Part shown: positions 3,830 to 30,222 of the stretch, one piece after another
Layout: each line of letters starts with the position of its first letter
Numbering within the stretch: position 1 is the first letter of the stretch
Sequence record: OK322699.1
DNA: 64,000 bases
Strand: one strand, 5' to 3'
From: Escherichia phage Sa157lw
Translations under genes and position numbers: made by a program
The notes under the pieces: generated by a model
Databases searched by the model: none
Seen by the model: the letters and a program-made list of their open reading frames with translations, nothing else
What the model was told of the DNA's origin: nothing

Positions 3830-6571
3830 TTATGCCCCGAGAATACGTTTTGAAATAGCCTTCACAAATCTAGTGGCATCTTCAATCGCATTATGCGCCG
3901 TTGGCTGATATTTTGACATCATGAATTTCACCAAACGATGACATTCAACTCGGTATCGGTTTTTGGCCTTTTGCTTTTGAGATATAGTGCTAGTGACCTT
4001 TATCTCATCAAATCCTTCAGCAGTTAATTTTTCATTCAATAAATCAACAACTTGAGTTAACTGGTTACAGGCGCGGAAAAATCTCGTAGTTGAGAAAGGC
4101 ATTTCTATACGATAATGTAATTCCTCAACAGCCTTGCGGAAATAACCGTACCCCGATCCAGACGGGTTTCGTTTGGCCAGCATACGAACAACCTTCCATT
4201 CTTCTTCAGTGATTTGTTGTTTCGCATAACCGATGATTGCTTTTGCCCTGTGTTGATGATGAGCATAGCCATCCGTAACTTCTCCATGGGAATCAATCAA
4301 CAGCTTGGCACCATAATCAATGCGATGAGACATGATGTTTATGCCCTTGCGAAGTTTCAGGAGTTTCTTAGATTCAAGCGCCTGAAATTCATCTTTATAA
4401 TGCTCAAGCAACATATCAAACACTGCGTCAATGGGGATGAATACTTCTGGGAATTTCTTCATCATCGGAACAGATTTACGACGCGCAAGAACGATTGTTG
4501 GATGCGCTCCCAGCAAATCAAACATGTTTTCGTTTCCATTCTCGCCGAACTTCGTTCTTTCCATCGCTTCACGCAAATGTCCAGCCGTGGATTGTCGTAA
4601 GGTATTACCATGAATTTTATGGATACCTTCTCGGCCAGATACTTCGATATATACGATCTTTTTGCCTGAATCAATAATATCTGAAACGGTTTTTCCATCC
4701 AATTCATAAACGCTGTCGAAGTTAAATGAATTGTAATGGAAACTAAACATCCCAGGATCTTTTTCAACGGTCGGGCGAACATATTCCATTTCATGCATGA
4801 AATAAACTTCATCCGGATTGAATAAATCGCCAAAAACCTCGATCAGTTTATCGGCAAAGACCAGGTAGTCCGGTGTTGTTTCTTGTACACCGATCCATGA
4901 TTCAAAATAAGACTTCAATTCCTCATGGTTGGTGAATGATTCTTTATGTGCCGCCAGCTGATTCCGATTACTGAAATAATTTTCATTCGGCTTGACGACG
5001 ATAACGACATTGAAGTTATTGCGTGCTGTTTGTATCTTCAGGTTTCGAGCACGATTCGAGTTATCAATAATAACAGCAATTTTTGATTTAGATTTCAACC
5101 AATTTCCGACAGAGTTCACATAAATGCTGTCGTGTACTACACCGTCGTCGTGTACTTCAATTTCGTAAGGACTACCAATAGACCGGAAAGGTGCATCCAC
5201 AGAGTAATCGCGCACGACGTCCGGCGCTCCGATATAACGGAACGTGCCTTTGTAGAAACGGTTATCTGCAGGAAATTCTCGCTCCACTAATTTACGGAAA
5301 CCACTACCGAACATATCGGTCAATTGAGCCTTCTTCATATAAAGCATAAGAGGACCCATAGATTCGGCCTGGCGAAGTTCATACATCTTCGCCTGCATAA
5401 TATTGTCAGCCACATATTTGAACACTCGGTTCAGGCTTTCACGGGTGAACTCGTCATATGACAAGTCTTCACGTGATGGAGGAACATTCAATTCTCCAAG
5501 TTCAAAGAATGTATAGGAACTCGGGAATTTCTCCAGCACCGAACGTATTTCAGAATCCAATTGCTCAAGATCTATCGGATAAGAAACCCCGCCCATAACG
5601 GCATAGTGGGTATTATCAGAATCAGACTTCGGCTGAATATACGTGTTGCCCACACGGTTTTCAAAATTGATGTCCTGCCAGCGGAAAGAATAACTGGCAT
5701 TTTCAACCTTCGGGCGCATTGATGGGCGCATAACTCGACCCAGACGGACCAGTTCTTGTTCAAATGCGGTAAATCGCTGATTCTTTACAGGCACTTTAAC
5801 AGTCAGACCATTGAACTCATCAGTGTCTTCTGGTTTCGGATCACGGGTATCCAAATCCTTGGTGATCAGGTCCACAGTAGGAATCCTGTCCGCATTCAGA
5901 TACATAAGAAAGCGATACAGTTTACCTTCATAACGACTTTCTACAGTAAATGAGTCCGACACTGCAAATGGGGATTTAGAACCCAGCCCGAACGCGCCGA
6001 TCTGCCCGTCGTCGTCCTCTTTGGTGCTGTGGAAGAGTGTGGTGTACAAACCAGGTCCACGGATGATCTCGCCATCCTCAGCGCGGAATACCAACACCCC
6101 ATTGTAATAACCAGGCGTCCCAATAACAGCAGTGCTGTCAGGGATTTCATCTTCCTTCACAACAATGTTGCCTTCGACAAGCACTTCATCTTCCCGCGCT
6201 GCGATAGGTTCCCCGATAATCATTTCTAACGGAAGGCCAATCCCATAATCCTTGATTTCCAACCATGGTTCCATAACATCAGGTAAATGGACCACAACGG
6301 GCGTCCCTTTGGGAGCAAGATGCTTGCTGTATCTTTGGGGCATAGGGGTAAGAGGGGCATAATGGGACGGCAACCAACGCTGTTGGCGATCACGCATATT
6401 ATGCGAGTCTATACCGTTACATAACGTCTCACGCAAAGATGCGGCCTCTTTATATTTGTAGAGACTTGAAAATAATGTTTCAAATAATTTATCCGTCATC
6501 TTGACATTAAATGTCTGTCCGACGATAGTGGAAGAAGAGCGCACGAAATGCTCAGACTTGCGCATTTTCAT
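3830..6571 (-). CDS. rIIA: rIIA-like protein (GHKL ATPase-like N-terminal region)
   Basis: Motifs GAFGLGSKSPF, VMGGVSYPID and NVPPSREDLSYDEF match T4 RIIA (GGFGLGSKSPF, IYGGIVYPID, IAPSREALSLDD). Confidence 0.8.
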   Translation of the reverse strand: MKMRKSEHFVRSSSTIVGQTFNVKMTDKLFETLFSSLYKYKEAASLRETLCNGIDSHNMRDRQQRWLPSHYAPLTPMPQRYSKHLAPKGTPVVVHLPDVMEPWLEIKDYGIGLPLEMIIGEPIAAREDEVLVEGNIVVKEDEIPDSTAVIGTPGYYNGVLVFRAEDGEIIRGPGLYTTLFHSTKEDDDGQIGAFGLGSKSPFAVSDSFTVESRYEGKLYRFLMYLNADRIPTVDLITKDLDTRDPKPEDTDEFNGLTVKVPVKNQRFTAFEQELVRLGRVMRPSMRPKVENASYSFRWQDINFENRVGNTYIQPKSDSDNTHYAVMGGVSYPIDLEQLDSEIRSVLEKFPSSYTFFELGELNVPPSREDLSYDEFTRESLNRVFKYVADNIMQAKMYELRQAESMGPLMLYMKKAQLTDMFGSGFRKLVEREFPADNRFYKGTFRYIGAPDVVRDYSVDAPFRSIGSPYEIEVHDDGVVHDSIYVNSVGNWLKSKSKIAVIIDNSNRARNLKIQTARNNFNVVIVVKPNENYFSNRNQLAAHKESFTNHEELKSYFESWIGVQETTPDYLVFADKLIEVFGDLFNPDEVYFMHEMEYVRPTVEKDPGMFSFHYNSFNFDSVYELDGKTVSDIIDSGKKIVYIEVSGREGIHKIHGNTLRQSTAGHLREAMERTKFGENGNENMFDLLGAHPTIVLARRKSVPMMKKFPEVFIPIDAVFDMLLEHYKDEFQALESKKLLKLRKGINIMSHRIDYGAKLLIDSHGEVTDGYAHHQHRAKAIIGYAKQQITEEEWKVVRMLAKRNPSGSGYGYFRKAVEELHYRIEMPFSTTRFFRACNQLTQVVDLLNEKLTAEGFDEIKVTSTISQKQKAKNRYRVECHRLVKFMMSKYQPTAHNAIEDATRFVKAISKRILGA

Positions 6572-11321: not shown

Positions 11322-12557
11322 TCATCGTTTCAACAAAGACATGAGGTTTACACTGGTCGACTTCGGATTGTCCTCTATCTTCCGGACGGGCATTTTCAGA
11401 TTAGTGTAAACCTCAGATGGTTCCCAACGCGTACCCTGCTGCAGGTGCCATATATGTAGAGGAACACCTGTCTCAAAGAACACAGGCATCTTCCACTTCT
11501 GGACGCCAGGAACGTGCCCTGCAGGAGCTTTTTCGCATAACAGGGTATCTGGTAGCCAGAGGGAACGGGCTTCCCATAATGCCTTACAGGAGTACTCAGG
11601 CCAGATGCGTTCCATGTAGTCGATCTCATCCCAAGTACGCTCGGCATCCCACCCGATGTAACGAGTGTTTTTCAGACGGAAGAATTTCTTAAGCCAACAA
11701 GCACCGGAAGTCTCAAAGTTCAAACGATTGATGAACGTGATGTGACCAAACTCGGCGACACAATCTTTGAATGCCTGTTCAAGATCAGCCTCAAGGATGT
11801 CGCATTCTTCATCGGTGATAGGACAGCCGTTGATCTTTTTCTTTCCGTGCTTGGTCACCCAGTCGTCACGGTTTGACAAGAATGCCGCGCCGTTGCGGTT
11901 GGACTCACTACCATCACGGTCACGCAACATGAACCCAGGGACGTCGATCTGATACATGTTGCCGAATACCATGTTCAGGGCTTCCAGGAAGTTCCAGGCG
12001 CTCAGGCGACCGAAGTATTTCCACCCCATAGCCGTGTCCCATAGCTTAACGAATTGATCACTTTGCAGTTTAGTCTCCAACAACGGACGGAAAGCATCCA
12101 TCTGAGTACGACCAGCCAGCCAATCAATGTAGGACTGAACACACGGGATCATCTTCGATTTGCGATAGCGGCAATCAGTATCGAATCGCATACGCTCGAA
12201 GTTCAGGTTATACCAATCACAGAATCGCTTGAACTCTTGTGGTGACTGAGGCGGTACAGGAAACTCACTATAAATCGTCCATGGGCCAATCCCATTATAA
12301 CAACAGCCCCAAAGGAACGCCATCCAGATCTTGCGCTCGATCTTCTCAAGCTGCGTAATGCCTTCAGTGACTTCAATCGCATAATCCATCAGACGAACTT
12401 GTTGGTTGTGTTCTTCCGTATACGACAGCGCCTCCACCCATGCTTTGAGCAGATACATCCGATTCTCTGGCTTACGATAATCGATTGACAAATCAATTGG
12501 GTACTTCCATTCAGCCGGAGGCGTATAACCTGTCGGCATTTTAGATAGATGCGTCAT
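11322..12557 (-). CDS. hypothetical enzyme-sized protein (411 aa); possible DNA-modification or nucleotide-metabolism role
   Basis: Long intact ORF near a P-loop kinase and a HAD hydrolase; no motif recognised with confidence. Confidence 0.45.
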   Translation of the reverse strand: MTHLSKMPTGYTPPAEWKYPIDLSIDYRKPENRMYLLKAWVEALSYTEEHNQQVRLMDYAIEVTEGITQLEKIERKIWMAFLWGCCYNGIGPWTIYSEFPVPPQSPQEFKRFCDWYNLNFERMRFDTDCRYRKSKMIPCVQSYIDWLAGRTQMDAFRPLLETKLQSDQFVKLWDTAMGWKYFGRLSAWNFLEALNMVFGNMYQIDVPGFMLRDRDGSESNRNGAAFLSNRDDWVTKHGKKKINGCPITDEECDILEADLEQAFKDCVAEFGHITFINRLNFETSGACWLKKFFRLKNTRYIGWDAERTWDEIDYMERIWPEYSCKALWEARSLWLPDTLLCEKAPAGHVPGVQKWKMPVFFETGVPLHIWHLQQGTRWEPSEVYTNLKMPVRKIEDNPKSTSVNLMSLLKR

Positions 12558-24453: not shown

Positions 24454-24972
24454 TCAAATACTAGTCATATAGAGTGGGACAACCTGCTCAGCGATAAACA
24501 CGACCTCGGTAATGGTAAAATCACCACCATAAGAGTACAGTTTCATTTGCGCCCCGTTGGTCGCCAGGTTCCCATCCTTGTCAACACTGAAGAACGTAAT
24601 GAAAGACAAAGTGTCCGGCGGCGGTACGCTAGCATCACGACTTCTTGATAACTGGTTCCCCACAGAACCCACAAAATCTAATATCATGGTTCTATTAGAA
24701 GTAGACCCAGACCATGATCCGACAATATTAACCTTCACAGGAAGAATAGAATCATAGGGAAACGCATGAAATTTGTGATCTGATAATTTAAAGAACGGAG
24801 CCAAACCAGTAGGAGAAGAAGGGTTTGGTGTCTTCCCATCCAACTCAGTTAACAAATCTATTCCAGTTGCCCCAGAAGTTAGCAGTTGTGACAATCCAGA
24901 AAATCTGACTTCTGTTTTAATGCGGTGGGTCTGAAGCATATTCCCCAAATAGGGAGATGTCAAAATAGCCAT
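24454..24972 (-). CDS. hypothetical protein (172 aa)
   Basis: Intact ORF. Confidence 0.45.
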   Translation of the reverse strand: MAILTSPYLGNMLQTHRIKTEVRFSGLSQLLTSGATGIDLLTELDGKTPNPSSPTGLAPFFKLSDHKFHAFPYDSILPVKVNIVGSWSGSTSNRTMILDFVGSVGNQLSRSRDASVPPPDTLSFITFFSVDKDGNLATNGAQMKLYSYGGDFTITEVVFIAEQVVPLYMTSI

Positions 24973-24981
24973 ATCTCCCCC

Positions 24982-25215
24982 TTAAGAAACGATAACCGTC
25001 GCATCAGAATTAATTGCCTTAACCCATCCCACCGTCGGCGGGGTTAAAACGACCATATTTCCTTGATATATGATATGCGCGTTGTTACCCGTTGGAGCGC
25101 TGGGGCTATCACACAGATACACAGAACCGTGAGTCACTTGAAGAGTTTTCAAAGATGTGCCGTCTGAGACTTGCGTCCATGTACTTGCGTTTGGTGTGAT
25201 CTTAGCAGTTGCCAT
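24982..25215 (-). CDS. hypothetical protein (77 aa)
   Basis: Intact ORF just downstream of the tRNA-cluster terminator. Confidence 0.4.
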   Translation of the reverse strand: MATAKITPNASTWTQVSDGTSLKTLQVTHGSVYLCDSPSAPTGNNAHIIYQGNMVVLTPPTVGWVKAINSDATVIVS

Positions 25216-25250
25216 AATAGACCTCCTTTACAAGTCAGATCTATTTATTA

Positions 25251-25285
25251 CAGACAAAAAGAAGCCCGATCGTCCTGATCGGGCT
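25251..25285 (-). terminator. intrinsic terminator at the 3' end of the tRNA cluster
   Basis: Perfect 9-bp stem agcccgatc/gatcgggct with 5-nt loop; minus strand continues tctttttgtc. Confidence 0.55.
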
Positions 25286-25508
25286 ATGTTAAACCATCGT
25301 GGGGATGGAAAGACTACTCACAGCAATTTCTGATAATGGGCGTTGGGAGAGTGCGTCGGGAATCGAACCCGAAATCGTCAGGACGCTGAAAGCTATTTGC
25401 ATTTCACTTGCATATCCTGCGACTTTCTTAACTTCCTTAACCCCAGATTGTTATGAAGTCAGCATGCACACCTTCTTCATCTTCAGGAAGTCACACTCAT
25501 TATTCTGA

Positions 25509-25594
25509 TTGCTTCAACTGGATTCGAACCAGTGACCTCAGGCACCTTGTTCTCTCGAAACTTTCCTGCGCTCTACCACTCGAGCTATGAAGCA
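25509..25594 (-). tRNA. tRNA-like element (canonical acceptor, D-arm and T-arm; anticodon arm does not fold canonically)
   Basis: Acceptor tgcttca/tgaagca, D-arm gctc-gagtggta-gagc and T-arm actgg-ttcgaat-ccagt are textbook, but the 36 nt between cannot be folded by eye. Confidence 0.4.
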
Positions 25595-25597
25595 ATT

Positions 25598-25686
25598 TGG
25601 CGGAAGGTGAAGGATTCGAACCTTCGGGGGCTAAAAGCCCCACTCGATTAGCAGTCGAGTCCCTTAAACCTCTCGGGCAACCTTCC
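25598..25686 (-). tRNA. tRNA-Ser (GCU), type II with long variable arm, CCA encoded
   Basis: Hand fold: acceptor ggaaggt/accttcc, 3-bp D-stem, anticodon arm ctcga-cuGCUaa-tcgag, variable hairpin gggc-tttt-agccc, T-arm gaagg-ttcgaat-ccttc. Confidence 0.8.
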
Positions 25687-25690
25687 AATT

Positions 25691-25774
25691 TGGAGCGGGA
25701 GAACAGGATTCGAACCTGTCCAGTGATCGTCGCCGATGATCAGTCGGCTACTGGCCAACCCCTATGGCTCCCGC
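25691..25774 (-). tRNA. tRNA-like element with GAU anticodon-like loop (possible Ile), non-canonical D region, CCA encoded
   Basis: Perfect acceptor gcgggag/ctcccgc, T-arm acagg-ttcgaat-cctgt, hairpin gccga-cuGAUca-tcggc; extra nucleotide before the 3' acceptor strand and no clean D-arm. Confidence 0.4.
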
Positions 25775-26249
25775 GAAATTTGGACGGGCTTCACACCCGA
25801 TTGAGCATTTGATCTGCCGTAGCCCAACTCCCCGCGCTTCACAGCGCCGATTGGTTAACTGGCGACCAGTGCCTTCTGGTTCGATCTCCTGGAACTTTAC
25901 AGGCTTCGCGCCCGACCATTTCTGGAAGTTGGGGCATCGTTTCCGATGTGGAGTCACCCCATTTTATACACAGCTGGCTGCAACGCTTACTGTGTTTGGT
26001 CTACCGCTACGTGCTGGGCCACGCTCGAGGACATCGGCCATCCTTCCTCAGCTAATCCACGCAGCGGCAGATTTGTATCAGAGTGTCCGGTGTAGCTTTC
26101 CGTGAGGTGCGCACTACTGTAGCCTCTACACTCTGAAATTGTTTGAAGTAGGTCTCACTCCCCTGGGTATCTGTATCCTGCAGCCTTACATTGGCAGCTA
26201 TCGCGCGATTCGCACTTCCGAAGGCGCTTCGAGATACTCTACTTCAATT

Positions 26250-26325
26250 TGGCGACGATGGCAGGACTTGAACCTGCGACATACGATTTAACAGACCGCC
26301 GTTCTACCGACTGAACTACATCGTC
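26250..26325 (-). tRNA. tRNA-Asn (GUU), CCA encoded
   Basis: Hand fold: acceptor gacgatg/catcgtc, D-arm gttc-agtcggta-gaac, anticodon arm gcggt-cuGUUaa-atcgt, T-arm gcagg-ttcaagt-cctgc. Confidence 0.85.
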
Positions 26326-26326
26326 A

Positions 26327-26527
26327 TTATCCGTGCTTGTTTGCTTCAATTGCCCTTAATTGGGCATCAGCGTCAGCTTTGGTGTCATGTGTCCCAAGAA
26401 CCTTCGTCTTGGTGTGGTCAAGGACAACCCACTTGTCGCCTCGCTTTTCAACAAACTCAACAATCTCTTTGTTGTCAGTAGAGAGGCCATCCCACTCAGC
26501 AAGAAACTCACCGAACGTTTTCATCAT
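26327..26527 (-). CDS. small hypothetical protein (67 aa) between tRNA genes
   Basis: ORF fits exactly between tRNA-Asn and tRNA-Met. Confidence 0.3.
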   Translation of the reverse strand: MMKTFGEFLAEWDGLSTDNKEIVEFVEKRGDKWVVLDHTKTKVLGTHDTKADADAQLRAIEANKHG

Positions 26528-26644
26528 ACTCACCAATCGTTTATTGAACAACTGGTTTATTTAGGTGCTCCCGAGGCGGTATTTTAATCCCGCGATCCCA
26601 TCTCGCCTGTCGTAGACCGGAGCATGCTGACAGTCCAACATATT

Positions 26645-26720
26645 TGGTGACCCTGGCTGGACTTGAACCAGCGACCAATCGATTATGAGTCGACTGCTCT
26701 AACCACTGAGCTACGGGGCC
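26645..26720 (-). tRNA. tRNA-Met (CAU; elongator-type or lysidine Ile2), CCA encoded
   Basis: Hand fold: acceptor ggccccg/cagggtc (one C-A mismatch), D-arm gctc-agtggtta-gagc, anticodon arm gtcga-cuCAUaa-tcgat, T-arm gctgg-ttcaagt-ccagc. Confidence 0.75.
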
Positions 26721-26828
26721 AAAATTGGCGGGGTCTGAGGCTTTTCACCTCACCTGCTGGATTGGCCTCCAGCTGTTCTCTCTGGGGACTCGCTGTCCGG
26801 ACAGCTATCCCTTAAACTATCGCCCCTT

Positions 26829-26943
26829 AATTCATATTGCTGTGGGTAATACCAAAGCGGAGGTTTGGAATCTCTCGCCCTATAGCGACCTTTAAACCGT
26901 TTGATCAGTCCGATCCAAAGGACTACCCACAGCAATATGAATT
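26829..26943. repeat. perfect 20-bp inverted repeat (26829-26848 / 26924-26943) around a 75-nt spacer
   Basis: aattcatattgctgtgggta is the exact reverse complement of tacccacagcaatatgaatt. Confidence 0.9.
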
Positions 26944-27150
26944 TGTTGTGTCCAATCAAGGACTGTCAACCTTTTATCCCGTTTGTGCATGATCAGTTCA
27001 TGCAGGCCTCTTTGTGCGCCTCACAGCAACGCGCTTCTGTAGGTCATTGACTTGCACCGTAGTCTCACCACAGGCGTTTATTTTTCCAGGGCTTTCCACT
27101 TACAAGTCTTAACCAGATCGGGATACGGGCTTGTAAGATCAGATTGGACA

Positions 27151-27228
27151 CAACTTTGATGGCTCTAGGACTAAAGATCCCGCGTCACCCATAGACTTGG
27201 TTTATAAAATCTAGAGCCATCAAAGTTG
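27151..27228. repeat. perfect 18-bp inverted repeat (27151-27168 / 27211-27228) around a 42-nt spacer
   Basis: caactttgatggctctag vs ctagagccatcaaagttg. Confidence 0.9.
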
Positions 27229-27608
27229 CAACCAATGTCGCAACTCGCACTTCAGCGTCTTCGTCTCGCTTCAGCACTTGTCCTCTACGCTCGGACCAAA
27301 CGAGGCTGGCCGACAGAAACATGACACCACTCATCACTAGAGCGAGGATGTGGTTGATAGCCACGATGTTACATCTCTGTCGCAGAGTGATCACACTTGT
27401 CAGGATGATCACTGTTTTGCGAACTTGAAAATACTGCGCCTGTCTCGGGTTTCCCCTTAGTTCGGCCTCTCATTGTTCGTCTAGTCAGGGAGCTACCCTT
27501 GATGACCAGCTTATTTTGAGATCTTCGCCAGCACCCACTAGTGTCTAGAATATGTAGGTGTCGAGGTCTGCAAGGCATTGCCCTATTTCATACAACGCTC
27601 TCTCAAGT

Positions 27609-27744
27609 ACGCAAATCGAAGTTCTCTGGGCTTAACAGGTTCGACCCAACATGTTGTATATCGCCTAACTTGCTCATGGGACGGACACATCTGTGTACAG
27701 ACCTTGAGGGTTAAAAGATATACCCAAAGAACTTCGATTTGCGT
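27609..27744. repeat. perfect 17-bp inverted repeat (27609-27625 / 27728-27744) around a 102-nt spacer
   Basis: acgcaaatcgaagttct vs agaacttcgatttgcgt. Confidence 0.85.
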
Positions 27745-27889
27745 TGTGGGGGCAAACCCCCACACGGCTACTTCTTTGACAGGGATTGCTAGCCCTGGGG
27801 ATTCCACTGTTTAAGGCTTTATCCCATAACGCCTGAGGCGCGTTTTAACTTATTGAGCTTGCATAACTGCAAACTGATGCGCTGTGAGA

Positions 27890-28022
27890 CACATCTTTGA
27901 GGGCACTCAGTGTACAACAGGCTCCGATATTTCATAGGGCATTACTGCCTCGGATTTAAGTTGCCTTTCTCCTGAAACTCCATGCAGTCTCGCGTCTGAC
28001 GCGGAATGCCCTCAAAGATGTG
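27890..28022. repeat. perfect 16-bp inverted repeat (27890-27905 / 28007-28022) around a 101-nt spacer
   Basis: cacatctttgagggca vs tgccctcaaagatgtg; right arm ends at the tgg of the adjacent tRNA-like 3' module. Confidence 0.85.
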
Positions 28023-28146
28023 GAGCCGTTTTAGGGAGTCGAACCCAAATGCTTGGCCAGCGCTGACCTTACATCCCATCTGACTTAGGCAACCCACCTC
28101 TGCTTACTCAGGAGCTTATCCCCTTTGGACAGTCAGATATAACGGC
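28021..28146 (-). ncRNA. tRNA-like 3' module (CCA, acceptor, T-arm) whose only matching 5' acceptor strand is ~120 nt away
   Basis: tgg-a-gccgttt-taggg-agtcgaa-cccaa at 28021-28048; complementary aacggc only at 28141-28146. Confidence 0.25.
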
Positions 28147-28148
28147 TT

Positions 28149-28217
28149 TGGGATTGGAGGAAGGACTCGAACCTTCTCATGTACGCTCCTGATTTCTCAG
28201 AAGTAGCCTGCTCCCAT
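28149..28217 (-). tRNA. short tRNA-like element (about 69 nt with CCA), anticodon arm atypical
   Basis: CCA-discriminator-acceptor attggag, T-arm gaagg-actcgaa-ccttc, 5' strand atgggag (one mismatch); central ctga-gaaa-tcag hairpin has a 4-nt loop. Confidence 0.3.
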
Positions 28218-28434
28218 CGACCTATTAAGTACACGCTCCGCTCATTGTTCGGCGGGAGCTTATTAATCACACCCTCCCGCCTATTGTTAGTGCGCCGAAT
28301 TTTGTTATGAGGAATCGGAAGACCTCACTGGTGTATGGCTATTAAGCTACTGCCAGGAACGTGTTATCATTAGCGATTATTTTTGTGGTCAGTTTCTAAA
28401 AACCCGCAAAGTCACGCACAACGAAAACGAAAAC

Positions 28435-28499
28435 CTGTTTGAGTCCTAAACCTACCTGTCTTGGTCTCACATCGCTATGAGTGGCCAGGACTCAAACAG
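28435..28499. repeat. perfect 13-bp inverted repeat (28435-28447 / 28487-28499) around a 39-nt spacer
   Basis: ctgtttgagtcct vs aggactcaaacag. Confidence 0.8.
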
Positions 28500-29289
28500 C
28501 TTGCCGTTCAGTGAGTTAACTATACTTTGTAACCCGTTATTGATAAAACCTTTTATTTTTGTTGACGAGGGTGTGGAATCGAACCACACTTCTGAGCGCT
28601 GCCCCGTGTCACCAATGCACCACCTCACCATCGATTTGCCGGAACTTACGCATCCGGCCTCGCCTGTTGGTGATCCTTCGAATCCGGGAAGATTAGTAGG
28701 AACTATGAATCAAGTTAATTCGACCAACAGGAATCCTCGTGTTGCCCTTTGACGCAACATTATGAACCCTCTATGAAGACTCATAATGTTGTCGGCGTGA
28801 TGGAGATTAGCGCCCCCGACCTCCCCTTATATGTTGGTGTCGACTTGCCAACGGGGTGCTCTCATTCTTCTGAGCTAATCACGCTACAACAGGGAGTTTC
28901 GTTCTCCGACGGTCAAGTGCGTCCACTGACACCAGCGAGGTGGATGTGACGCCTCTATTCACACAAGCCCCAGAGACTAGGGGTTCACTGTTTTCGGTTT
29001 CAAGCCTACTCACACTGTGCTGTTTCCCTCATGTTTGATACTTTACTGCAAGCCAGCCAATTTGAAAAATCCTCTCCCCTTTGAATTACACTGCCCACAG
29101 CAGTGCGGACGAACCTTCATTCAAAACCGGATGCGCCGAAATGGGCGACTGTGTACCGGACTGATCAGGTCGACCCAGGAGAGAGCAGGTAATCCCGATC
29201 AGGAGGATGAGGAGTAACATCATGTAAAACATAGTGTTCCCTCCCTTCCATGCAACTAACTTTACCGCATTTATTTATTGAATAAAGCG

Positions 29290-29859
29290 TTATTTTATCA
29301 ATTCTAACTTCACAACGCGGCGCAGAAGATAAACATATTCACCAGACGCTTCATGCGACATATAATGTGTAGAAGGGGTGGAATGGTTGTTCTGGGTTTC
29401 TTTTAACCCAACGCGTTCAGCCCAACCATTAATGGAGTTCCCGTAAAACCCGATAATCGCGCCGAAATAAATGCGCTGGCTTTCTGGTTCTAAAATATAG
29501 TTGACAGTGAAGCAGATGTCAGAACGAATAGATTCTAATTTTATACCAACCCGACCTTCAGAGAATTCGTTGCGAACATACAAATGACGAAAACGATCGC
29601 GCCGCGCTTGTGATGACTCTTCCAATTCTTGGCGAAGTGAGGATGTTGCATCGATATTAAATGAAAATGTCGGGTTTTGTAGATCGGTACGGGCTAACTC
29701 TAATGCTGATTCAACAACACGGCGGTAATTAATATTTTTGCCAGTCAGACGTTTCACTTCTTCTGTAATTGTTCCGAAAGGAATTTTTGTAGCACGTTCC
29801 CCTTCGTATTTTGCTAACAAAGGAATGATGTGTTTCATTATTGCTGTATTAATGTGCAT
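29290..29859 (-). CDS. hypothetical protein (189 aa)
   Basis: Intact minus-strand ORF at the edge of the non-coding region, divergent from the structural module. Confidence 0.45.
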   Translation of the reverse strand: MHINTAIMKHIIPLLAKYEGERATKIPFGTITEEVKRLTGKNINYRRVVESALELARTDLQNPTFSFNIDATSSLRQELEESSQARRDRFRHLYVRNEFSEGRVGIKLESIRSDICFTVNYILEPESQRIYFGAIIGFYGNSINGWAERVGLKETQNNHSTPSTHYMSHEASGEYVYLLRRVVKLELIK

Positions 29860-30222
29860 TTCCTGAGCCTCGTCAAATTAATTAAATGTCCCCACTATTA
29901 TATTGGGAATATGTTTATTGAATATAACCCCAAGAAAGGCCAATAAAATAATGACAGCGATTATTAATAGGTAAAAACTACTTTTCTACAACATCAAGAA
30001 ACTGTATCTTAACGCGGTGCCCTTCGAGTTGTGAGTGTTAACGAACAACGAGAAGCAGCCTCCATGGCTGCGGAATGGGACTGCCTGTCAAGGCGGTGTT
30101 ACGAGCGAGGGCGTCAGCCCCCTCGCGAGTATATTCGAATAAATTAACGCGCGAGAGCGTTTTGATTCCCTTTGGCTAAATATCTTCAACACCATATTCA
30201 AACTCAGGTGATGGAGATTATC

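Follow-up and report, generated by a model that had tools for sequence, protein, structure and literature searches.

We analyzed a 64-kb segment of the genome of Escherichia phage Sa157lw (OK322699.1), a Kuttervirus of the family Ackermannviridae; this segment, hereafter the window, has ~98% identity with Salmonella phage vB_Hercules_SET and 96-97% with E. coli phage CBA120. Our subject is a region poor in open reading frames (ORFs), 26721-29289, that adjoins a cluster of transfer RNA (tRNA) genes. The genes for tRNA-Ser, Ile, Asn and Met are located at 25598-26720 on the minus strand (ARAGORN and Rfam), and the coding sequences (CDSs) on either side of the region, 24982-25215 and 29290-29859, are also on the minus strand. 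Considering that all tRNAs and flanking CDSs share this strand, and that 25400-29200 has a GC content above that of neighbouring coding DNA and a negative plus-strand GC skew, we read the region in minus-strand sense, with its 5' end at 29289 and its 3' end at 26721. In every Ackermannviridae lineage that we sampled (five: Kuttervirus, Taipeivirus, Limestonevirus, Miltonvirus, and two Aglimvirinae phages without a listed genus), the same place, between tRNA-Met and the CDS adjoining the baseplate gene gp6, is taken by an ORF-poor stretch of 1.3-2.6 kb, and in the records examined it bears inconsistent short hypothetical-protein calls, or none. In our view 26721-29085 is probably an extension of the phage tRNA operon on the minus strand: an island of noncoding RNA genes, arranged as a head-to-tail array of at least 12 helix-closed modules. 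These modules are conserved across Ackermannviridae lineages, covary, do not encode protein and are shuffled as cassettes. In the order in which they are read, the features are:

29086-29232, minus strand: candidate small membrane-protein ORF of 48 amino acids (aa), beginning MFYMMLLLILLIGITCSLL, with an ATG and a GGAGGG Shine-Dalgarno sequence
28640-29085, minus strand: conserved 5' block of helices (alignment A4; folding z-score -3.7)
28893-28907, minus strand: hairpin GGAG-AACGAAA-CUCC of the 5' block
28795-28884, minus strand: tRNA-like module D, within the 5' block
28752-28793, minus strand: 17-bp hairpin I25 of the 5' block
28663-28731, minus strand: stem CCUGUUGGU/ACCAACAGG of the 5' block
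28563-28629, minus strand: module A, a four-arm cloverleaf (alignment A7)
28519-28546, minus strand: putative sigma-70-type promoter TTATCA-16-TATAGT from a consensus scan, directly upstream of hairpin I7 and the RNA that follows it
28426-28508, minus strand: hairpin I7, 13 bp perfect and 22 bp at 86%, whose 3' arm holds the first GUUUUCGUU of the next RNA
28251-28434, minus strand: transfer-messenger RNA (tmRNA)-like RNA without a tRNA-like domain (TLD), recognized from relaxed ARAGORN, weak Rfam hits, homologues and covariation
28149-28217, minus strand: module B, a cloverleaf/minihelix unit
28021-28146, minus strand: module C, a 126-nt cloverleaf by fold prediction (alignment A6)
27890-28022, minus strand: hairpin I4, 16 bp perfect and 24 bp at 88%, beginning on the CA of the module C CCA
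27609-27744, minus strand: hairpin RNA I3, a 22-bp stem with one U-G pair (alignment A5)
27143-27236, minus strand: hairpin RNA I1, with a stem of 19-22 bp and, in its loop, the conserved motif UAUGGGUGAC (alignment A3; z = -7.4)
26945-27154, minus strand: module R, a 210-nt multi-helix RNA closed by a 13-bp repeat (alignment A1)
26829-26943, minus strand: hairpin I6, 20 bp perfect, extending to a three-way structure in the minimum free energy (MFE) fold (z = -7.5)
26721-26828, minus strand: leader block of three hairpins directly 5' of tRNA-Met, with 90-100% identity across genera

At the nucleotide level the noncoding blocks are 80-100% identical between genera, whereas the flanking CDS189 and gp6 are only 66-79% identical. 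The initial annotation had described the region as free of ORFs. This holds with one exception. ORFs of 75 and 91 aa are broken, being frameshifted or truncated in close relatives and showing no codon periodicity, while control CDSs show an excess of third-position changes; the exception is the minus-strand 48-codon ORF at 29086-29232, with its ATG and Shine-Dalgarno sequence. This ORF is annotated as orf219 in CBA120 and is also annotated in other phages, and it is intact in 8 homologues; its substitutions by codon position (5/25/8) do not follow the pattern of constrained coding sequence. It is the sole plausible CDS in the interval. The view that the locus instead holds several unannotated small proteins, with the hairpins as terminators or translational signals, can appeal to the 40-75 aa hypothetical proteins that depositors annotate here and to the good Shine-Dalgarno sequence of the 48-aa ORF, but the annotated mini-ORFs vary between records, the stems lack U-tracts, and the 75-aa and 91-aa ORFs decay as described, so that we regard it as highly improbable.

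The most conspicuous feature of the region is its inverted repeats, on which our own exact scan and a second repeat search agree (perfect repeats of at least 13 bp were counted with a spacer of up to 200):

26829-26848 / 26924-26943: 20 bp, 75-nt spacer (I6)
27151-27168 / 27211-27228: 18 bp, 42-nt spacer (I1)
27609-27625 / 27728-27744: 17 bp, 102-nt spacer (I3)
27890-27905 / 28007-28022: 16 bp, 101-nt spacer (I4)
26945-26957 / 27142-27154: 13 bp, 184-nt spacer (closes module R)
28435-28447 / 28487-28499: 13 bp, 39-nt spacer (I7)
28755-28765 / 28781-28791: 11 bp (in I25)

The window has seven perfect repeats of 13 bp or more, six of them in 26721-29289; the seventh is at 11342-11415, with a 48-nt spacer. 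When repeats of 11 bp and more are counted, the region holds 7, against a mean of 0.08 in 300 dinucleotide shuffles of the same region, and its longest perfect repeat is 20 bp, against 14 bp for the longest among the shuffles. The earlier statement that at least five long perfect inverted repeats exceed chance is therefore borne out. Folding z-scores of the hairpins reach -7.4 to -7.5.

Alignment to Ackermannviridae genomes, which the initial annotation had suggested, brings out compensatory changes in the stems. Module R, the most widely conserved element, is present in all five sampled lineages; across 18 distinct sequences its 51 pairs are 99.0% paired, with 15 compensatory, while slid controls are 28-38% paired and none of 500 shuffles match. 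In hairpin I1 (9 sequences), 6 of 25 pairs are compensatory and the 19-bp main stem is unbroken throughout, as in the swap of GAUGGCUCUAG/CUAGAGCCAUC for GAGGACACUGG/UCAGUGUCCUC. The interior motifs of I3, CACAGA and ACAUGUUGGGUCGAAC (AUGUUGGG), are common to long hairpins downstream of the tmRNA-like RNA in SSU5-like phage-plasmids (nhmmer cross-hits), where they are enclosed by a 17-22-bp closing stem of entirely different sequence; in an alignment of 3 Ackermannviridae and 6 SSU5-like sequences the 18-pair closing stem is kept, with 9 pairs compensatory and a single broken cell. Similarly, the arms of I7 are replaced among 14 unique homologues with pairing kept (GAGUCCU/AGGACUC versus GGGCA../UGUGCUC), the copy of I6 in locus L036 keeps its stem through double changes (GCUGUGG/CCACAGC to GUCGUGG/CCACGAC), and 12 of the 98 predicted pairs of the 5' block show compensatory changes (15 sequences). 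Stems kept by compensatory and G-U-compatible changes, in a region that outconserves the neighbouring CDSs, support the earlier view that these are structured elements rather than remnants.

By nhmmer across 132 phage loci, modules R, I1, I4, I6, I7 and the 5' block had no homologues outside Ackermannviridae. The most conserved 48 nt of module R (27093-27140) are 93.8% identical to positions 73217-73264 of the 144-kb Klebsiella phage KP13-26 (OP617743.1); given this match, module R may range beyond Ackermannviridae. A likeness of CGGGAUAAAAGG in module R to the type I-E CRISPR repeat, which had suggested an RNA anti-CRISPR, was seen by eye only, with 4 mismatches in 13 positions, and was dropped.

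The modules are arranged as a mosaic. In 21 related loci, the near-universal blocks are 29300-28250, 27350-26950 and module R, while module B (8 loci), the I4 region (5-8) and the I6 interior (6-12) are optional, and block borders are sharp. Neighbouring modules abut with gaps of 0-4 nt: module D adjoins I25, the CCA of module C overlaps the start of I4, I1 overlaps the stem of module R by 4 nt, and module R ends 1 nt from I6 (in the minus-strand order I1, R, I6). I6 is an optional cassette: it is cleanly missing from LIMEstone1 and from many other phages, among them many Kutterviruses, and other inserts of 300-500 nt take its place in Taipeivirus. In CBA120 (locus L002, 4746-5159) and several Salmonella phages, an HNH homing endonuclease gene stands in place of 26721-26922, beside tRNA-Met, and could explain the 95-100% identity mosaic of neighbouring RNA cassettes across genera. 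In Klebsiella phage P01 (Taipeivirus), the homologous island contains a bona fide Rfam STnc100 RNA (locus L003, 3399-3613, minus strand; 53.6 bits against a gathering score of 47) at a point equivalent to 27250-27276 of the window, which links this RNA island of a virulent phage to prophage small RNA (sRNA) families (PasD/STnc100). The window itself has no match to STnc100 (RF02076; gathering score 47 bits) or to any Pas family in Rfam. The initial annotation had spoken of one family of elements; what we find is a mixed array, whose modules are unrelated to one another and come and go independently.

Such mobility would also be expected if the repeats acted at the level of DNA, as cruciform palindromes or as terminal inverted repeats of mobile cassettes (similar to miniature inverted-repeat transposable elements, or homing-associated) in a recombination hot spot, an option that the initial annotation had left open. 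The arms in this genome are perfect Watson-Crick complements; I6, I4 and module B come and go as just described; a homing endonuclease occurs at the locus in CBA120; and blocks of 95-100% identity across genera suggest recent lateral exchange. We nevertheless consider this explanation unlikely. Between genera, and even from one phage family to another, double changes that compensate each other preserve the stems; the loops enclose conserved motifs and nested helices that covary; and neither a transposase nor a target-site duplication was seen. Moreover, where only one side of a validated helix has changed, the result in minus-strand sense is nearly always a G-U pair, and such intermediates would be A-C mismatches in the other arm of a cruciform. 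Module R has 38 G-U cells against 9 unpaired cells, and every one-sided change in I1 yields G-U or A-U, which argues for a minus-strand RNA and against DNA cruciforms. A similar strand test on raw MFE pairs was uninformative (88 versus 84); only validated consensus helices are informative here.

The tRNA-like 3' modules noted earlier are genuine: all three are minus-strand ends made of a T-arm and an acceptor, and two encode a CCA. In total, we recognize four or five tRNA-like RNAs without a normal anticodon loop. Four of them are described here as modules A to D, with encoded CCA in B (28149-28151) and C (28021-28023); in these, either a tri- or tetraloop closes the anticodon arm or the arm holds a large insert. 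None has the 7-nt anticodon loop of a cloverleaf tRNA and a score above gathering for RF00005, ARAGORN at default settings and Rfam being silent on all four in the window, and none is a decoding tRNA. Module A has a triloop-capped "anticodon" stem, the D-loop AUUGGUGAC, the T-arm GUGUGGUUCGAUUCCACAC, an acceptor GGUGAGG/CCUCGUC with U3-G70, discriminator A73, and ACA instead of CCA; across 8 sequences, 4 of its 23 pairs are compensatory, and its copy in locus L010 aligns weakly to the Rfam permuted-tmRNA and tRNA-Sec models. Module B combines an acceptor AUGGGAG/CUCCAAU, with a G3-A70 mismatch, with a canonical T-arm GAAGGUUCGAGUCCUUC, discriminator C73, and a 7-bp GAAA-capped stem where the anticodon arm would be expected. 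Module C has the acceptor GCCGUU/AACGGC, U73, a 63-nt first arm, a tetraloop-capped second arm and a GGGUUCGACUCCC T-arm, and is cassette-like, being 95-99% identical across genera with flanks that diverge right up to the first acceptor base. Module D has the acceptor GCGUGAU/AUCACGC and a normal D-arm, and a 26-nt hairpin-bearing insert replaces its anticodon loop.

These modules raise the question of whether the island is a graveyard of tRNA genes, decaying from a larger cluster and drifting neutrally. Many weak tRNA-like hits appear in relaxed ARAGORN runs, relatives have more true tRNAs, some of them within the island (tRNA-Tyr in Serratia phage 3M), and the homologue of module D in L010 scores 29.9 bits against the Rfam tRNA model, reaching the gathering score. 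However, the supposed remnants outconserve the adjacent protein genes, keep their acceptor, D and T helices by compensation and retain encoded CCA ends, and most of the island (module R, I1, I3 and the tmRNA-like RNA) has no tRNA ancestry. We find a graveyard very unlikely.

The Rfam and ARAGORN searches proposed earlier recovered the tRNAs and weak tmRNA hits, and left the tRNA-like modules uncalled: an Rfam cmscan of 24500-30000 at E<=5 returned only tRNA, weak tmRNA and chance hits to microRNAs and plastid untranslated regions (antisense tRNA), and none of module R, I1, I3 or the tRNA mimics corresponds to a family in Rfam 15. We regard module R and the I1 and I3 hairpin RNAs as new, covariation-supported RNA families, and the CCA-ended tRNA mimics as new as well. 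GOLLD and ROOL are large, highly structured phage-borne RNAs encoded adjacent to tRNA genes, and the whole 2.4 kb might likewise be one giant ornate RNA rather than separate small RNAs. The tRNA cluster adjoins, the helix-closed domains, 0-4 nt apart, could stack, and a long-range pair of 28 nt (25315-25342 / 26821-26848; 75% complementary, 1,478 nt apart) brackets the tRNA cluster; one arm of this pair, which encloses the whole cluster, is a diverged copy of an I6 hairpin arm. We judge a giant RNA quite unlikely, because each module can be acquired, lost or exchanged without the others, the tmRNA-like RNA follows a conserved promoter inside the island and stands alone in other phages, no long-range covarying helices were found between modules, and the cmscan of 24500-30000 gave no match to GOLLD, ROOL or other Rfam phage RNAs at E<=5. 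Unlike GOLLD and ROOL, the island is modular, with independent cassettes and an internal promoter. The comparison drawn earlier with the stable RNAs of the T4 tRNA region seems apt as an analogy: T4 species 1 and 2 (rnaC/rnaD) are encoded in the tRNA cluster and cotranscribed with the tRNAs, and have tRNA-like ends and RNase III-sensitive hairpins. The island differs in being larger (~2.4 kb, at least 12 modules) and in having a tmRNA derivative, and no sequence or Rfam relationship to the T4 RNAs was found. Structured sRNA clusters beside phage tRNAs are also known from the late leaders of lambdoid prophages (STnc100, PasA-D, AgvB, AsxR; bioRxiv 10.64898/2026.05.13.724894). The tmRNA-like RNA occurs in exactly that region (Q-holin) of an E. 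coli prophage and the P01 island has STnc100, but the lambdoid sRNAs regulate by base pairing and have terminators, and they are neither hairpins closed by a stem nor mimics of tRNA.

The claim that the elements fit no standard category was too strong, as several modules are tRNA-derived and one, overlooked in the initial annotation, is clearly tmRNA-derived, with a tag ORF and pseudoknots. From 5' to 3', this tmRNA-like RNA consists of a 5' arm, a small hairpin, an A-rich segment, a tag frame and two H-type pseudoknots:

28411-28434, minus strand: 5' arm GUUUUCGUUUUCGUUGUGCGUGAC
28339-28374, minus strand: tag ORF GCU AAU GAU AAC ACG UUC CUG GCA GUA GCU UAA UAG, encoding ANDNTFLAVA and two stops, after an AUAAUC resume context
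28323-28328/28307-28312 and 28315-28318/28295-28298, minus strand: pseudoknot A
28290-28294/28268-28272 and 28274-28281/28251-28258, minus strand: pseudoknot B

As in a tmRNA tag, the frame opens at an Ala resume codon without an AUG or a Shine-Dalgarno sequence, and ends in stops after a hydrophobic, Ala-rich C-terminus. Among 28 distinct tag DNAs, the differences by codon position are 577/646/1492, all four GCN codons are used for Ala10, and position 6 is Y or F in 27; in other words, the tag frame looks translated. The resume context is ..A(A/G)AUAA(A/C)U followed by GCA in 32 distinct contexts (AAAAAUAAUC followed by GCU in the window), and its U(-5)A(-4) is kept. From general knowledge and the sequence of locus L133, we take this dinucleotide to be the counterpart of E. 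coli U85/A86. The downstream pseudoknots (alignment A2) comprise 23 pairs that are 88.8% paired, against 35-56% in slid controls, with 13 pairs compensatory, while the segment upstream of the tag has, instead of pseudoknot 1 (PK1), just a simple hairpin with weak support (helix 1, 83.7% paired). Putative promoters in the same position as that of the window occur in every lineage examined: TTGTCA-17-TATAGT in L010, TTGACA-17-TATAGT in Felixounavirus, and a counterpart in SSU5-like elements.

The RNA resembles tmRNA (SsrA) in its A-rich resume context with U(-5)A(-4) and an Ala resume codon, in a 10-codon tag that begins AND (ANDENYALAA in E. coli), has an aromatic residue at position 6, and ends in a hydrophobic Ala-rich C-terminus and double stops, and in the H-type pseudoknots 3' of the tag. 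It differs in that no TLD is present on the template, the 5' end has no acceptor partner and is antisense to the host template, PK1 is replaced by a simple hairpin, and the tag ends in ..LAVA or ..LMAA, not ..ALAA. Against the Rfam tmRNA models (RF00023, RF01850 and RF04321; gathering score 47), the copy in the window scores 20.6 bits at best and those in L005 and L010 reach 32.5-32.8 bits, all far below gathering, and the alignments reach the template region only, as they do for the lambdoid prophage copy, which also yields only fragments. Relaxed ARAGORN and weak Rfam hits first pointed to 28149-28616, and ARAGORN calls the RNA only at -ps80. We judged its 468-nt "standard" tmRNA at 28149-28616 spurious, since the 5' strand is part of module A and has a U-U mismatch, and rejected the Rfam permuted tmRNA model as a source of a TLD, since it borrows a neighbouring tRNA or module A, without an acceptor 5' strand.

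The tmRNA-like RNA is not confined to Ackermannviridae. A core of 140 nt matches unannotated DNA in Felixounavirus, in ~47-kb Klebsiella/Salmonella siphoviruses and in E. coli prophages, and a pattern scan of IMG/VR extends the family to at least 120 loci, including Felixounavirus, SSU5-like phage-plasmids, lambdoid prophages and Klebsiella siphoviruses. (An assignment of the ~100-kb contigs to T5-like phages was wrong; they are the SSU5-like phage-plasmids.) Ten-codon tags of the form AN[DE]xx[FY]LAVA plus stop were found in 121 copies, and the ..LMAA form also occurs in the family; other Ackermannviridae tags are ANDEKFLMAA, ANDSEVLMAA and ANDNAFLMAA. Hits occur in 137 of 5,426 E. coli genomes, none of those listed under an annotated feature, and at this frequency the RNA is not a match to host ssrA; the one E. 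coli hit whose context was inspected sits in a lambdoid prophage, with the Q antiterminator on one side and the holin gene on the other. In L004, L006, L123 and other loci outside Ackermannviridae, repeated complementary boxes GUGCUCUUUCC ... GGUAAGAGCA bracket the tmRNA-like RNA as well as variable inserts, some with a T-arm GGUUCGAnnCC, and their repetition allows alternative pairings.

The invariant 5' end of the tmRNA-like RNA is the reverse complement of host tmRNA at the resume codon (...GCCGCAAAAAAUAGUC followed by GCA AAC GAC GAA AAC U). All 18 distinct 5' arms dock on host tmRNA at nt ~65-105, with the resume codon at nt 90, with a mean free energy of -25.0 kcal/mol, against -12.0 kcal/mol on the equivalent segment of the phage's own RNA. 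As background we used 513 tiles of enterobacterial DNA, counting those on which an arm docks with an energy equal to or better than that on host tmRNA. No tile did so for the L004 arm (lambdoid prophage/Klebsiella siphovirus type; 0/513), the SSU5-type arm (0/513) or the L016 arm; there were 8/513 for a third arm type and 20/513 for Felixounavirus. By eye, the variants GUGAC, GCGGC and GCGAU of the GCGAC box stay wobble-compatible with host GUCGC. Of the 120 proteobacterial species sampled, 109 show no variation in the host target. The loop of the hairpin at 28893-28907 (minus strand) and the 5' arm of I7 (28500-28508, minus strand; AACGGCAAG, and AACGAAAAG in other genera) both show the host-tmRNA-like motif AACGAAA. 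Since this motif is the complement of the GUUUUCGUU arm of the tmRNA-like RNA, the two sites might serve as internal masks or imitate the host target.

Beyond the island, ARAGORN and Rfam (tRNA, 48.7 bits) identify one further feature next to the tRNA cluster:

25509-25594, minus strand: aberrant tRNA

Its 22-nt anticodon loop reads CAGG-AAAGUUUCGAGAGAACAAGGUG-CCUG and resembles, by eye only, the sarcin-ricin loop; Kuttervirus records label the gene inconsistently as tRNA-OTHER, Tyr or Undet. A near-identical expanded loop (4 substitutions, including the GNRA swap GAGA to GGAA) belongs to a tRNA-like gene that directly follows the tmRNA-like RNA in a lambdoid E. coli prophage (L004, ~4251-4340) and in a Klebsiella siphovirus (L006, ~2765-2860). 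Between tRNA-Asn and tRNA-Met lies a 65-aa CDS (26327-26524, minus strand) that starts MKTFGEFLAEWDGL, is kept across genera and is clearly coding, with substitutions of 30/6/84 by codon position.

In the explanation that we favour, that of a noncoding RNA island extending the tRNA operon, the array would be transcribed from upstream late/early genes and from the internal sigma-70 promoter at 28519-28546, and host enzymes would cut it into stable small RNAs. Modules A to D would act as RNase P or 3'-end "punctuation", and possibly as tRNA decoys, while the long near-perfect stems would serve as RNase III-type processing sites or stabilising clamps, freeing the conserved hairpin interiors as functional RNAs. 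Head-to-tail packing, uninterrupted stems of 16-22 bp and gaps of 0-4 nt fit a polycistronic precursor punctuated by RNase P/III signals. The tmRNA-like module would most likely intervene in host trans-translation, where it could either hide the host tag template or dock on host tmRNA with a template of its own, much as in a two-piece tmRNA. Natural two-piece (permuted) tmRNAs of alpha-proteobacteria and cyanobacteria carry the template and the tRNA-like domain on separate chains, which makes docking on host tmRNA the leading hypothesis. More specifically, and tentatively, we propose that a template-only tmRNA of at least five unrelated enterobacterial phage lineages would pair, by its conserved antisense arm, with host tmRNA across the resume codon. 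The resulting hybrid two-piece tmRNA would silence the tag template of the host and swap in a ...FLAVA or ...LMAA tag, thereby reprogramming ribosome rescue and protein tagging, with the tRNA mimics and hairpins as a decoy/processing toolkit in this takeover of host translation quality control and tRNA machinery; we hold this full proposal to be possible, although doubtful. Potent ssrA-like degrons have the consensus [L/F/Y/W]-[L/A/R]-L-A-A, with FKLVA the strongest, and the phage tag tails FLAVA and FLMAA resemble them (bioRxiv 10.1101/2024.01.29.576913), which leaves the outcome of a tag swap ambiguous. Among reported phage tmRNAs, whole genes occur in mycobacteriophages (cluster C) and Bacillus phage G, and mycobacteriophage DS6A has a TLD-only tmRNA, half the molecule, a similar molecule inhibiting host tmRNA (PMC4131195, PMC11915505). 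The RNA described here is likewise a phage-borne tmRNA derivative; it is the complementary half (template and pseudoknots, no TLD), its hosts are Enterobacteriaceae, and the anticodon-less tRNA-like RNAs A and B are encoded alongside as separate modules. In the literature covered, which is incomplete and excludes the tmRNA Website, these tags, a tmRNA-like RNA in these phages and the island RNAs are not mentioned, and searches on Kuttervirus transcriptomics, "anti-tmRNA" and "tmRNA-like phage" found nothing relevant.

Several points weigh against these interpretations. For the island, the presence and absence of I4, I6 and module B, together with the CBA120 homing endonuclease, also fit mobile DNA cassettes; module C is nearly invariant in 12 sequences, so that covariation gives no test of its fold; and the promoter and the RNase P/III roles are read from consensus and anatomy. 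For the tmRNA-like RNA, no tRNA-like domain (G3-U70 acceptor, T-arm and CCA) is formed from its 5' and 3' ends or joined to them, so that it fails a defining feature of tmRNA; near a T-arm, no CGAAAAC partner for the conserved 5' GUUUUCG is present in 125 loci. With no TLD on the template, and with module A having U3-G70 rather than G3-U70 and no CCA, translation of the tag would be hard to explain. Finally, docking of the arm of this window is modestly above background (24/513 tiles and 28/150 shuffles at least as good), that of the L010 arm is no better than background (157/513), and the docking evidence is weakest for the Ackermannviridae copy itself.

Ackermannviridae (CBA120, ViI-like), FelixO1-like phages and lambdoid prophages are in heavy use and have been sequenced intensively, yet in the records examined this 2.4-kb island carries no consistent annotation. 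Whether phages manipulate trans-translation by means of RNA is now a testable question. A template-only RNA would complement the whole-gene phage tmRNAs and the TLD-only RNA of DS6A, and would matter for the strains used in phage therapy, for defences that target tRNA and the phage responses to them, and for the biology of the ssrA degron.

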